Positions 15,574 through 22,078 are shown, counted from the first letter of the stretch. The stretch: DNA of 64,000 nt from Escherichia coli (GCF_044324875.1 NZ_CP172185.1); one strand, 5' to 3'. Program-made: numbers and translations. Notes: generated by a model from the sequence alone, not told the origin.

Positions 15574-17574
15574 TCATCCTTGTTGCTGAAGCATGGGGAA
15601 TAATTGTTCGCAAAGCAAAACACCGTTATTCATTGCTTCTACCCGTGCCTCGCTTTCTGTATTACGAAATTGTGCCAACACATGTGCCAGCCGATAAAAA
15701 CCGACCGCGGTGAGGTCATTCGCCAGCAACTCTGCCTGACCAATAGCACTCTGTTCCTGATAGCGCCAGCCGTTATGGAGCAGTTGAATAAGTAACGCCT
15801 GGCAGCGCATCAGCAACTGATGAGCGGTAGACGGCACAGGCAAAACGCTGGCAGAAGGTAGCGGTGCCACAGGCGTAGTTTCTGCGTCCAGAGCCCAGGT
15901 ACGAGTCTTTGTCATCATTACCTGTGGTTCCAGTGTCAATTGCCCCTCTACAAAACTGACAAAGCCAGAAACCATACTCACGGGGTCCTCTGTTTGTTGT
16001 AACAGAGCTGCCATGCGTTCAACAGCAAAGGGCGAACAGGCAGAGGCTGGTAGGGATAATGTCAGCACGTTATCTTCACCTTCGCCGCTGATTACCTCCG
16101 CATCCAGCGTCTGGCGGCTGCTATCCCAACCGAGTGAAATACACTCAGCGACTGGCAGAATAAATAAGTTATCCACCTGATTAAGAGGCCGTATGCAGGC
16201 GGGGGGACGCTGGCGTAAATATTCCCGCAAAGCCACAATGCCCGGCTGGCGCAATGGCGCGCTCAACATTTGCCAGGCGTCTGGCGACAGCGGCACAACA
16301 CTACTCAAGCGGTTGCGGGTAGCTAACAACAGCTCGCCATCGGCACTGCGTTTTGCTGCTTGTGAAACAATTTGCCCACCTGCCAGTGCGCCAGCCTGAA
16401 AACTAAATAGCCGACGTTTTGCCGCAGGAGCGTTTTCTTGTTCGCTTCTCGGCCAACTACGCGAAAGGTGCAAAATACTGCCGGTGTCGGGATCGGTGAA
16501 CCAGATGCGTAAACCATACTGCTCAATATCCTGCCAGCAACGCATACCTAAAGACACCAGCCGCAGATGATCAAGCTTTGCTTCTCCGGCAATGCCAGCG
16601 CCAACGACCGTGCGCCACGGCACATGAGGAACTTCACCAACACTGTCGCGCCGGGCCATCTCTTGTGCGCAATTTAATCGACTGTTTAATGCCGCAAGCT
16701 GACGTAAGCATTCTCCGGCATGATAGTGACTGGCGCGGGCGTGGAAGGCATCAACGCTGGCGCGCAGTTGCCATAGCGATTCACTCACCCATCGCCAGTT
16801 GCAGCGTTCCGCTGCTTGCTGCGCGCGGCTGAAAGCGGCCTCGTAGTGAATAAGCGGCTGGCTGATGCCGCTCAGCCATAATGCCTGGCTTAGTTGCTGA
16901 ACATATTGACGACACGCGTTGCCCTCTTCGCTGGCAAACGGATCGTCAGATGATGTGACGTGTTCGCTGCGCATCTGCCAGATTAAATGAGTAAATTCCG
17001 CTTGCTGAGTTTTGGCCTCGACGAAGGCCTGCACAGCCAGTACGACATGTTCGCAAAGTGTGCCGTCAATACAATCACAACGGGCGAAACGAATACTGCT
17101 GCGGGAATAAAAACGCACATCGCTCATCGGTAAGCGGGCAGAGGGAATTTCGCCCGGCGTACAGAACAACTCAATGGTGATGCCTTTAGCGACCAGCGCC
17201 TGTGCGCGTTTGCGGGTGGCATCGGGAAGGGTAGCCAGTTCTTCCAGCCAGATTGCCGGATCCCACTCTTCTTCTTTTTCCGTAGGCTGGGTGGTGGCGC
17301 AAAGTCGCTGATAACTTAAAACCAGCATCACGCGATGGCGGCACATGCCGCTGGCCCCGCAGCTGCACTGAGCCTCTTTCAGTGCCTGACCGCTCGCCAG
17401 CTGGGTACGGACACCGTCACTGAAGGTGGCGATTAAAGCGCCGTTCTCATGACTGATTTCCGGGACGTTGCCATTTTCCAGTTCTTTAAGGCTGCGCTTA
17501 ACAAAACCGGCATTGCTTAACGCCGTCAGTGCCTGCGGTGTCAGTTCTAATAATTCCGGACGTAGTGAATTCAT
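15574..17574 (-). CDS. yehQ: SWIM zinc-finger protein YehQ
   Basis: CxC...CxH SWIM-like motif (CSCGASGMCRHRV); start overlaps yehP stop (ATGA). Confidence 0.8.
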   Translation of the reverse strand: MNSLRPELLELTPQALTALSNAGFVKRSLKELENGNVPEISHENGALIATFSDGVRTQLASGQALKEAQCSCGASGMCRHRVMLVLSYQRLCATTQPTEKEEEWDPAIWLEELATLPDATRKRAQALVAKGITIELFCTPGEIPSARLPMSDVRFYSRSSIRFARCDCIDGTLCEHVVLAVQAFVEAKTQQAEFTHLIWQMRSEHVTSSDDPFASEEGNACRQYVQQLSQALWLSGISQPLIHYEAAFSRAQQAAERCNWRWVSESLWQLRASVDAFHARASHYHAGECLRQLAALNSRLNCAQEMARRDSVGEVPHVPWRTVVGAGIAGEAKLDHLRLVSLGMRCWQDIEQYGLRIWFTDPDTGSILHLSRSWPRSEQENAPAAKRRLFSFQAGALAGGQIVSQAAKRSADGELLLATRNRLSSVVPLSPDAWQMLSAPLRQPGIVALREYLRQRPPACIRPLNQVDNLFILPVAECISLGWDSSRQTLDAEVISGEGEDNVLTLSLPASACSPFAVERMAALLQQTEDPVSMVSGFVSFVEGQLTLEPQVMMTKTRTWALDAETTPVAPLPSASVLPVPSTAHQLLMRCQALLIQLLHNGWRYQEQSAIGQAELLANDLTAVGFYRLAHVLAQFRNTESEARVEAMNNGVLLCEQLFPMLQQQG

Positions 17575-18707
17575 GACTGAAGATTCTCCGCAAGCCATGA
17601 TGCCAGCTCGCCCGGTGTCATGGCGGCTATTTGTGCGCCGACATTAACCAGCGCCTGGGCCGTATCGTGGTCATAGCAAGGTGTTGCGGTGCTATCGAGC
17701 GCCGCCAGTCCCAGCACTTTGATGCCGCTCTGGACACACTTTTTCACCTGTTGCGTCAGTAATGATGATGAACCCCCTTCGTAAAAATCGCTCACGAGGA
17801 TAATGACGCTTTTCGCTGGTTGTTCAATAATTTGCCGACCATATTCCATGGCACTGGCGATATTGGTTCCGCCGCCTAATTGCACTTTCATTAATAACTC
17901 TACCGGATCGGCAACATCTGCCGTGAGATCAACCACGCTGGTGTCAAACGCCACCAGATGGGTACGAATACCGGGTAACTGCCATAAACAGGCCGCCATC
18001 ACCGCTGAGTGGATCACCGAGTCCACCATTGATCCGCTTTGATCAACCAGTAAGACCAGTTGCCATTGTTCGCTTTGGCGTTTAATGCGGCTGTTAAAGC
18101 GGGGGGATTCGATATACAACTTGCCGTGTTGCGGGTGCCAGTGTTGCAGGTTGGCGCGCAGGGTACTTTTGAAATCAAAGTTTCGCGCCAGTGGAATAAA
18201 TGAGCGGCGACGGCGATCGCGGACACCAGAAAAAGCCTGACGAACTTCCTTTGCCAGTCGCGCCATAATTTCTTCAACAACCTGGCGTACTATCCGGCGG
18301 GCGGCAGCCAGTACTTCGGGATTCATCAGATGTTTGGTGTGCAAAACGGCGCGTAGCAGGCTTTCAGAAGGCTGCATACGTTCCAGCACGTCGAGATTCG
18401 TCACCACATCTTCAATGCCATAGCGCAGCACGGCATCGCTTTCCAGCCGCTCGATCACCTGTTGCGGAAACAGCGTGTGAATACTGTTGATCCACTCAGG
18501 GGTGGTGAGATTTGAGCAACCTAATCCACCGGAGCGTTCACCACGCTGGAGCCGTTCAGGATCGCGCCCATACAGCCACTCCAGCGCGTGGTCTATCTGC
18601 CGGGCATTGTCATCCAGCCCACAAAGGGTCGTTTCTGCCGCTTCGCCAAGAATTAATCGCCAGCGTTGTAGCTCACGGGTGGTCAGAAGATCGTTCAGTT
18701 CAGACAT
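17571..18707 (-). CDS. yehP: von Willebrand factor A domain protein YehP
   Basis: 378 aa from MSELNDLLTTREL; MIDAS-like LLVDQSGSM motif. Confidence 0.85.
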   Translation of the reverse strand: MSELNDLLTTRELQRWRLILGEAAETTLCGLDDNARQIDHALEWLYGRDPERLQRGERSGGLGCSNLTTPEWINSIHTLFPQQVIERLESDAVLRYGIEDVVTNLDVLERMQPSESLLRAVLHTKHLMNPEVLAAARRIVRQVVEEIMARLAKEVRQAFSGVRDRRRRSFIPLARNFDFKSTLRANLQHWHPQHGKLYIESPRFNSRIKRQSEQWQLVLLVDQSGSMVDSVIHSAVMAACLWQLPGIRTHLVAFDTSVVDLTADVADPVELLMKVQLGGGTNIASAMEYGRQIIEQPAKSVIILVSDFYEGGSSSLLTQQVKKCVQSGIKVLGLAALDSTATPCYDHDTAQALVNVGAQIAAMTPGELASWLAENLQS

Positions 18708-20979: not shown

Positions 20980-20989
20980 GCATCTTTCC

Positions 20990-22078
20990 TCACGGCAGGC
21001 GGTGGCGAGCTTGATAATAAGCCTGCCAGTGAGCTTCTTTATGTGTAGCGACACGTTGTTCGAAGTAACGGCGCAGACGTGCGCGATCTTCTTCGTTATC
21101 TTTGACGATGGTTCCGGCAATACAGTCCACCAGGTCGGCAGGCTCCCCCGCGCGATTCGCTAAAAACCAGGCGCGGACACCCACAGCATGGGCCACGTTA
21201 ACGGCTTCAGCGGTGGACATAATCGCTGTCAGTGTATCCATTGACGTTTTCTTTTCGCCGTTGGCACGCAGATCGCGGAACGTGCGCACCAGTAATTCCA
21301 GTACCGCGTCAGGCACTTTATGCGGAATACCGCTATGGGCCAGCAAACGCGCCGAAGCACTGGCAACCAGTTCCAGCTCCTGGGCGAAATCCATAATCGG
21401 AAAGACAGTTTCAAAATCGAAGCGACGCTTTAGCGCAGCACTCATTTCATTGACGCCGCGATCGCGGGTATTGGCAGTGGCAATAATATTAAAGCCTTCC
21501 CGCGCATAGAGCTGACTGGCTTCACCAGTGAGTTCCGGCACCGTCATTACCCTGTCAGAAAGCATACCTAACAGACAGTCTTGTACTTCCAGCGGTGTAC
21601 GCGTTATCTCTTCAAAACGGACGATTTTGCCGTCGCGCATTCCCTGGTAAAGCGGGGCAGGGACCAGCGCTTCCGTTGATGGACCATGATTGATAAGCAG
21701 AGCGTAGTTCCAGCCGTACTTGATTTGATCTTCGGTGGTAGATGCGCCGCCCTGGATGGTTAACCCGGCATCGCCGCTAATAGCGGTTGCCAGTAATTCA
21801 GACAGGAGAGATTTTGCGGTGCCAGGTTCCCCCACCAACATCAAACCGCGCCCGGTAGCGAGAGTGACTAACATGCGTTCGACAGCGGAGGGACTGATCA
21901 CGACTTTACGGCTAATATTTTGCGCTTCGTCGCCAAGGATAAAAGCACGGGCCGCAGGCAAACTTAACTGCCAACCGGGCGGGCAAGGTGCGTTATCATT
22001 TTGTTTTAATTTTGCCAGTTCATCGGCGTATAACACAGCAGCAGGTGGACGCTGCAGATGATTATTCTGCGGTGACAT
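20990..22078 (-). CDS. yehL: MoxR-like AAA+ ATPase YehL
   Basis: 362 aa from MSPQNNHLQRPP; Walker A GEPGTAKS. Confidence 0.85.
   Translation of the reverse strand: MSPQNNHLQRPPAAVLYADELAKLKQNDNAPCPPGWQLSLPAARAFILGDEAQNISRKVVISPSAVERMLVTLATGRGLMLVGEPGTAKSLLSELLATAISGDAGLTIQGGASTTEDQIKYGWNYALLINHGPSTEALVPAPLYQGMRDGKIVRFEEITRTPLEVQDCLLGMLSDRVMTVPELTGEASQLYAREGFNIIATANTRDRGVNEMSAALKRRFDFETVFPIMDFAQELELVASASARLLAHSGIPHKVPDAVLELLVRTFRDLRANGEKKTSMDTLTAIMSTAEAVNVAHAVGVRAWFLANRAGEPADLVDCIAGTIVKDNEEDRARLRRYFEQRVATHKEAHWQAYYQARHRLP

Follow-up and report, generated by a model that had tools for sequence, protein, structure and literature searches.

A predicted five-component MoxR-VWA cassette around yehLMPQ in Escherichia coli and other bacteria

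The genes yehL, yehM, yehP and yehQ occupy positions 15574-22078 of a 64,000-nucleotide stretch of Escherichia coli DNA (GCF_044324875.1 NZ_CP172185.1, referred to here as the window, with positions counted from its first letter), and encode a MoxR-class AAA+ ATPase, a DUF5682 protein, a VWA protein and a SWIM zinc-finger protein, respectively. Comparison with genomes of other genera indicates that the conserved unit is larger than these four genes and appears to have five components, the fifth being the DUF4132 giants encoded upstream; these we place in the core because DUF4132 proteins share a fixed order with YehL, YehM, YehP and YehQ across loci. A preliminary description of the window had proposed one coordinated nucleoside triphosphate (NTP)-dependent machine of unknown function, and this appears to be the right reading because the domain assignments have held and the gene order is fixed far outside E. 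coli. The same cassette is present in hundreds of species and at least five phyla, and in the core genome of E. coli it ranks among the larger gene blocks that are entirely uncharacterised. The YehL subfamily and the gene names are already known, and the cluster itself is not new; the yeh system is of the MoxR-VWA type with three partner families that have never been studied. What were four unknown genes can now be described as a defined five-part system with candidate catalytic residues in the Walker A motif of YehL, in the metal-ion-dependent adhesion site (MIDAS) of YehP and at H11 and H202 of YehM.

Genes were called from a six-frame list of open reading frames (ORFs) and from the annotation in RefSeq of an E. 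coli chromosome with 98% identity, which agree exactly with each other and with the four overlapping or tightly spaced minus-strand genes first described. These are yehQ (15574-17574, 666 aa), yehP (17571-18707, 378 aa), yehM (18700-20979, 759 aa) and yehL (20990-22078, 362 aa), with overlaps of 4 nt between yehQ and yehP and 8 nt between yehP and yehM, and a gap of 10 nt between yehM and yehL. Three giants, rather than two, are encoded upstream on the same strand. In the order of transcription these are the first gene of the array (31056-34853, 1265 aa, with WGR and DUF4132 domains; an ORF call), a MolR-like giant (27282-31043, 1253 aa) and yehI (23628-27272, 1214 aa), and they are followed by yehK, an AT-rich spacer of 1.2 kb, and then yehL. 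All eight genes are intact in the window.

Conservation of the cassette outside E. coli

Relatives of YehM number 2264 at E<=0.001 among 50%-identity cluster representatives, and when one genome per species is scanned with a profile built from diverse YehM relatives, at least 551 loci are confirmed. Neighbourhoods were counted for the best 80 of these loci, all from other genera, with genes assigned by plain phmmer. The order DUF4132(x1-5)-YehL-YehM-YehP-YehQ on one strand is found in 70 of the 80, so that the cassette co-occurs outside E. coli as a neighbourhood check of the original proposal would have it, and several of the ten loci that deviate from this order stand at contig ends. YehP is present in 77/80 loci, two genes downstream of YehL on the same strand, and the medians of the distances between aligned parts of consecutive cassette genes are 11-100 nt. 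The giants vary from one to five tandem copies per locus. They had been described as WGR/DUF4132 proteins next to the operon, and whereas the domains are supported, mere adjacency is not an adequate account of what appears to be a conserved component.

Represented among the 80 loci are Gamma- and Betaproteobacteria, Myxococcota and many Actinobacteria. Gene calls made independently and carrying precomputed Pfam assignments add an Acidobacterium and a Deltaproteobacterium, in both of which the cassette has housekeeping genes as neighbours, a mobilizable Bacillus mycoides megaplasmid and the Proteus mirabilis chromosome, giving at least five phyla (Proteobacteria, Myxococcota, Actinobacteria and Acidobacteria, plus the Bacillus plasmid). 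Copies are also present on rhizobial plasmids, the plasmid records with a cassette being mainly megaplasmids or chromosomes filed as plasmids, and the YehM of Serratia is no nearer to that of E. coli than betaproteobacterial copies are. A sixth conserved family was sought by clustering all of the flanking ORFs of the loci, and none was found beyond genus-level synteny; likewise, no yehK homologue is present in the 80 loci from other genera, and yehK is probably not a core component. Both yehK and the zor/orz toxin locus beside yehL appear to be Escherichia-specific insertions that split the ancestral operon, and the zor/orz locus is not part of the conserved machine.

In a metagenome-assembled genome of 71% GC a second cassette (positions 12598-17543 of the stretch taken from that genome) lies directly downstream of a canonical one that has a fused YehM-YehP. 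In order, it encodes a SWIM protein of 501 aa, a HEAT_2 protein of 580 aa, a paralogue of YehL at 46% identity and a DUF5682 protein, and a DUF4132 gene is absent. The presence of a HEAT_2 protein instead of a giant indicates that the proposed sensor or client slot is modular, and suggests a wider family of systems with exchangeable helical partners. Such an exchangeable partner fits a sensor or specificity role better than that of a fixed enzymatic client.

Domains and candidate active sites

The domains assigned in the preliminary description to YehL, YehP and YehQ are all borne out, with motif conservation scored across 76-81 orthologues from several phyla. YehL has an AAA_5-type domain (Pfam, E=2.6e-34) with the Walker A, Walker B, sensor 1 and arginine residues of MoxR AAA+ ATPases. 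The Walker A motif GEPGTAKS is kept in 79-81 of 81 orthologues, and RFEE, which is an unusual Walker B, ATANTRD and ALKRRF are invariant in about 81/81; the usual Walker B form is Asp-Glu (hhhhDE). A match of YehL to the bpMoxR family of Pfam is weak (E=0.0024), and the AAA and VWA matches in an NCBIfam scan are weak and sub-threshold. YehL is the type member and name-giver of one of the seven MoxR subfamilies (PMC3893208).

YehP matches the VWA_CoxE model of Pfam over the full extent of the model (E=6.7e-71, model positions 1-222 of 222), and its MIDAS site is intact, with D222xS224xS226, T281 and D307 invariant in 77/77 orthologues. As a separate observation, the site at yehP codons 286-291 (window positions ~17837-17852) reads ATG GAA TAT GGT CGG C, so that the GGAG stimulator is lost here, and the cassette at this site is therefore not strictly conserved, even within Escherichia.

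The CxC...CxH motif reported for YehQ is present twice, both times with a marginal Pfam score. SWIM1 (C70xC72..C78xH80, E=0.0036) is kept in 75 of 76 orthologues and SWIM2 (C166xC168..C174xH176, E=0.12) in about half. The C-terminal ~450 residues of YehQ are uncharacterised, and a comparison of the YehQ sequence and profile with all PDB chains finds no relative. Length variation of YehQ within E. coli consists of simple in-frame deletions, and a hypervariable region was rejected as its source.

YehM was described as a protein of 759 residues with no recognisable domain, of which the length stands and the absence of a domain does not. It matches DUF5682 of Pfam (E=3.7e-98), and a confident structural model predicts an N-terminal TIKI/TraB/ChaN-like hydrolase fold (about residues 1-240, positions 20260-20979, minus strand, delimited from invariant columns and the secondary structure of the model) followed by a HEAT/ARM-like helical solenoid. 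The fold matches of the model are to a TraB-family protein (8bqs, score 10.1), ChaN (2g5g, 9.9), HopBA1 (5t09, 8.8), the Ere-like protein Bcr135 (2rad, 8.5), PMT (2ebf, 7.1), EreC (6xcq, 6.9) and RRSP (5w6l, 6.6), and for the HEAT/ARM part of YehM there are matches to TAF6, symplekin and condensin subunits. Across 31 aligned relatives, the most distant at 29% identity, the positions that never vary include R10, H11, H12, E35, H51, E83, D101, R175, E176, G199 and H202. Both G8xxH11 and G199xxH202 are invariant and each directly follows a beta-strand in the model; these we take to be the paired GxxH signature of the TIKI superfamily. The N-terminal model has as its core the parallel beta-sheet seen in the TIKI/TraB/Ere superfamily, whose listed members, the matched proteins included, have in common with the erythromycin esterases a catalytic constellation of His and Glu residues (PMC6254334). 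Membership of YehM in the TIKI fold is thus supported by modelling, and the fold and motif pattern suggest that it may be catalytic. It differs from the TIKI/TraB/PrgY/ChaN/erythromycin-esterase proteins in that the domain is fused to a HEAT-like scaffold of ~500 residues and embedded in an AAA+ system.

Distant YehM relatives of about 1120-1180 residues are full-length YehM-YehP fusions. Two were viewed in context, one of them in full canonical order and the other on a short contig, where a SWIM gene follows it. These natural fusions argue that the hydrolase-like YehM and the MIDAS adaptor YehP may work as one unit. They are similar to a MoxR-vWA pair of jumbo phages (PMC7824862) in which a peptidase-like domain lies N-terminal to the vWA domain beside a MoxR ATPase; however, that domain is described as a metallopeptidase, with a proposed role in virion assembly, whereas the yeh domain has a TIKI-like fold and the yeh system is chromosomal with SWIM and WGR-DUF4132 partners instead.

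The DUF4132 domain is readily identified in both YehI (Pfam, E=1.5e-46) and the MolR-like giant (E=8.1e-50). The MolR-like giant has an N-terminal WGR domain, a divergent helical middle, and a conserved C-terminal module of HEAT-like repeats and a DUF4132 alpha/beta part, the AlphaFold2 model of residues 740-1253 having a confidence score (pLDDT) of 94.2. A profile of the giant N-termini matches the WGR structure of PARP3 (2eoc, E=2.3e-5) and the WGR protein 2ra8 (E=1.1e-22), and a precomputed Pfam assignment places WGR (PF05406) on P0410, a 96%-identical E. coli homologue. The WGR claim therefore holds for the giants with the exception of YehI, from which the domain is absent. The N-terminus of the third giant upstream of yehL matches the same NCBIfam region as MolR, and an NCBIfam match of giant N-termini to a Leptospira 'fibronectin-binding' family was set aside and taken as the shared WGR domain. 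The three paralogues of the window are 28-44% identical, YehI being 35% and 28% identical to the other two; the DUF4132 module is the most alike and the middle the least. The giant profile finds nothing in all PDB chains besides the WGR domain. By analogy with PARP proteins, in which WGR binds at DNA breaks, and with the description of 'MolR-like TFs' (PMC7824862), the WGR domains of the giants may bind nucleic acid.

Proposed mechanism and alternative explanations

We tentatively favor the interpretation that YehL, YehM, YehP and YehQ, together with the giant or giants, make up a single ATP-driven and self-contained sensor-motor-hydrolase machine of five parts, which acts as a regulated switch for stress or conflict. 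In this scheme a WGR giant would be the nucleic-acid-binding sensor or client, and a YehL hexamer would exert a pull on it by way of YehP's MIDAS site, in the manner of other MoxR-VWA pairs. This step, dependent on ATP, would license the YehM hydrolase, held on YehP, to cut a protein or ester substrate, maybe the giant itself or a partner, with YehQ as a zinc-finger adaptor. The trigger would be DNA damage or foreign nucleic acid, rather than there being a housekeeping role in cofactor insertion. Joint inheritance of the five families, conservation of the motifs, the fold of YehM, the fusions, the WGR domain and the SOS box are what the analysis shows; who binds whom, what is cut and what the biological trigger is are things that we infer.

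The SOS response is a candidate inducing signal. A palindrome resembling a LexA box (CTGGATAAAATTACAG; 34863-34878, minus strand, read directly from the sequence) precedes the ATG of the first giant by 9 nt and shows no differences among six E. coli sequences, and molR has been listed among the genes under LexA control for which an SOS box is known (PMC6590174); the sequence and the list together point to a putative LexA site of the SOS regulon at this position. Depletion of the DNA-damage repressor DdrO in Deinococcus radiodurans leads to strong induction of a DUF4132 protein and of a WGR protein.

Several observations weigh against the proposed machine. LexA-type boxes are found upstream of the cassette at 4 of 53 loci in other taxa as against 6.6% in controls, which is no enrichment; the SOS box was consequently rejected as a general feature of the cassette, and the link to DNA damage may be local to Escherichia. 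The experimental record on the components consists of H-NS silencing and the SOS-box listing. Neither the sequence nor the profile of YehM has a sequence-level link to any PDB chain, and proteins of the TIKI superfamily have no detectable sequence-level similarity to it, so that its assignment, and with it the proposed catalysis, rests on the fold and the motif pattern; ChaN and PMT are examples of proteins that have the TIKI fold without being enzymes. For the model of the DUF4132 module, solved structures offer no relative apart from helical repeats, and the roles given to this module and to YehQ are guesses.

A bolder form of the proposal, which we regard as unlikely although worth stating, is that the cassette represents an unrecognised class of NTP-dependent sensor-motor-protease systems in which the WGR giants would recognise nucleic acid that is damaged or foreign, or proteins trapped on it, and YehL and YehP would license YehM as a protease directed at a defined target. 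If true, this would be either an immune system of a new kind in bacteria or a bacterial counterpart of the AAA+-assisted clearance of proteins bound to DNA, contained in the core genome of E. coli and yet invisible in K-12, where yehQ and molR are broken. A YehM that is an ATP-licensed TIKI-type protease would also provide the first intracellular bacterial role of the TIKI fold coupled to an AAA+ motor.

Among the alternatives, the one that survives best is that YehL and YehP are a classical MoxR-VWA maturation chaperone, which would remodel the giant or an unlinked enzyme for insertion of a metal or cofactor, with YehM as a ChaN-like cofactor binder and no hydrolase; we consider this unlikely. 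The precedents are CoxD-CoxE, NorQ-NorD, CbbQ-CbbO and RavA-ViaA, in which, as here, the gene for a MoxR-class AAA_5 ATPase has as its neighbour one for a VWA protein whose MIDAS is intact, and YehP matches the CoxE-type model end to end. However, in no lineage is an enzyme or metalloprotein conserved beside the yeh cassette; its sole conserved partner is a multi-copy, fast-evolving WGR protein, which would be an unusual metalloenzyme client. The pairs have no counterparts of DUF5682/YehM, SWIM/YehQ or the WGR-DUF4132 giant, which are obligatory partners here, nor do they share the RFEE Walker B of YehL. The invariance in YehM of two GxxH motifs and of the Glu residues typical of active TIKI enzymes, and the frequency with which components are broken in E. 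coli strains at no obvious cost, also argue against a maturation role.

A role in anti-phage defence strikes us as distinctly unlikely. Under it, WGR would let the giants detect the nucleic acid of phages or DNA damage caused by them, a firing threshold would be set by the MoxR-VWA pair, and YehM, as a TIKI-like protease, would be the effector of abortive infection. The self-contained cassette, its varying neighbours and its patchy distribution (the Serratia YehM being an example) are features that it would explain, as are the copies on the mobilizable Bacillus megaplasmid and on rhizobial plasmids, the sensor-like genes that are tandem paralogues, variable in copy number and the fastest-evolving of the set, and the combination of H-NS silencing and an SOS box at the E. 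coli locus. Moreover, the idea that MoxR-vWA pairs act as threshold switches for peptidase effectors has already been published (PMC7159879). The ternary conflict systems described in that study, with VMAP, iSTAND or beta-propeller components, resemble the yeh cassette in having a MoxR-vWA core with a large variable third component and an apparent peptidase-like effector joined to the core. In the iSTAND type the N-terminal domain of the vWA proteins is, like YehP, of the CoxE kind, and the likeness extends to the multi-copy, diversifying sensor-like genes of the yeh cassette.

The yeh system is not, however, among the four MoxR-vWA conflict systems described there, and YehL, SWIM, WGR and TIKI are not mentioned in that paper (PMC7159879, Kaur et al. 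2020). The third components of those systems belong to other families, in place of which the yeh cassette has DUF5682, SWIM and WGR-DUF4132 proteins, and their effector is a variable C-terminal domain of the vWA protein whereas the candidate effector here is a separate conserved protein; the cassette therefore falls outside the class as Kaur et al. define it, by a VMAP, iSTAND or beta-propeller third component and effector domains on the vWA protein. None of the eight window proteins matches a family at E<=0.01 in PADLOC-DB v2 (5027 models). In E. coli the locus has a fixed core-genome site in 96% of genomes and lies outside any defence island, elsewhere it is flanked by housekeeping genes, its gene-wide ratios of nonsynonymous to synonymous substitution (dN/dS) are well below 1, and it is virtually absent from phages and small plasmids. 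The label 'conflict-type', used of MoxR-VWA pairs in the preliminary description, is accordingly a tentative one for the yeh cassette. Searches of the accessible literature found no mention of DUF5682, only four papers naming DUF4132, which do not address its function, and nothing relevant on yehLMPQ or on WGR and DUF4132 together.

A tblastn search of 50,697 phage records recovers only one weak, unverified contig. This is MT835988.1 ('UNVERIFIED: Bacteriophage sp.', 14 kb, from a human faecal virome), which encodes YehL-, YehM- and YehP-like proteins at its start, followed downstream by unrelated ORFs that include one of 1207 aa, with no match to YehQ or DUF4132; it is a candidate for viral origin. 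Several window proteins match unnamed PHROGs families (phrog_30700, 33984, 31592, 29006, 36295 and 20839) at 197-1534 bits, most of them spanning the whole profile, namely YehM (split in two), YehP, YehQ, YehK and a giant. These matches were not taken as evidence of a phage origin; they are probably chromosomal E. coli genes swept into prophage predictions and should therefore be read as phage genes only with caution.

Variation and regulation of the locus in E. coli

In 5202 of 5426 complete E. coli genomes (96%) the yehLMPQ block is present over at least 80% of its length, at a single fixed site of the core genome. The copies are mostly 95-99% identical to that of the window, the same band as is seen with the metG control, which indicates that the window comes from a somewhat divergent Escherichia lineage and not that the locus is unusual. 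The giant region (22079-35000) is covered to at least 80% in only 508 of the 5426 genomes, the best matches of the giant array being mostly 90-95% identical with an annotated copy number of two or three, and the third giant (31056-34853) is present in only a minority of genomes. Values of dN/dS, calculated by the Nei-Gojobori method from six E. coli sequences, are 0.027 for yehL, 0.085 for yehP, 0.087 for yehQ, 0.135 for yehM and 0.13-0.21 for the giants, compared with 0.004-0.024 for apbC, btsS and metG, housekeeping genes on the flanks that served as controls. All of the cassette genes are thus under purifying selection, with the constraint loosest on the giants.

Measured from yehQ as far as the SOS box that precedes the first giant, the cassette spans ~19 kb, of which the zor/orz and yehK insertion accounts for ~1.5 kb. 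The toxin locus noted beside yehL is confirmed and is duplicated: the zorO-orzO/zorP-orzP type I toxin-antitoxin insertion (22156-23209, between yehL and yehK) is a tandem repeat of ~608 nt with two OrzO-P RNA copies on the minus strand (22190-22265 and 22800-22873; Rfam RF02083, 101 and 92 bits) and two 29-aa toxin ORFs on the plus strand (22512-22601 and 23120-23209), each encoding exactly the published ZorO peptide. At the end of each copy stands a hairpin with a T-run on either side, and these hairpins could be terminators of read-through from the giants into yehL. Because of the hairpins with T-runs on both sides in this region, the sequence suggests that yehLMPQ may be transcriptionally insulated from the SOS-controlled giants. 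Previous studies found that repression of yehL and yehM is lifted only in hns/stpA mutants and that H-NS binds the intergenic region upstream, which in this window is occupied by the zor/orz locus in its duplicated form. The remaining gene, yehK (23262-23567, minus strand, 101 aa, called as an ORF and annotated), lies between the giants and yehL and encodes an Escherichia-restricted protein, the one family match of which is to an unnamed PHROGs family.

It is very improbable that in Escherichia the cluster is the decaying and silenced remnant of a system once acquired horizontally, with no coordinated action left, as might be supposed from the H-NS binding and derepression pattern, the splitting of the operon by yehK and two terminator-bearing zor/orz copies, a pseudogene in three of five strains, the in-frame deletions in yehQ variants and a resistance transposon in the DUF4132 region of a sequence type 131 (ST131) sublineage, because all eight window genes and all of the active-site motifs are intact, the cassette is kept in 5202/5426 genomes, and dN/dS values of 0.03-0.2 reflect continuing purifying selection.

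The transposon in the ST131 sublineage is TnMB1860, which carries blaCTX-M-15 and is inserted in the metG/DUF4132/yeh region (PMC9334617). The three strains with pseudogenes, among the five inspected in RefSeq, are 300033, which is the closest to the window and has an internal stop in yehM and a frameshift in yehI; IPCEC48, in which yehK is a pseudogene; and the K-12-like laboratory strain TUM24769, with an internal stop in yehQ and a frameshift in the molR-like giant. The broken yehQ and molR in this K-12-like strain may explain the absence of a phenotype in knock-out collections.

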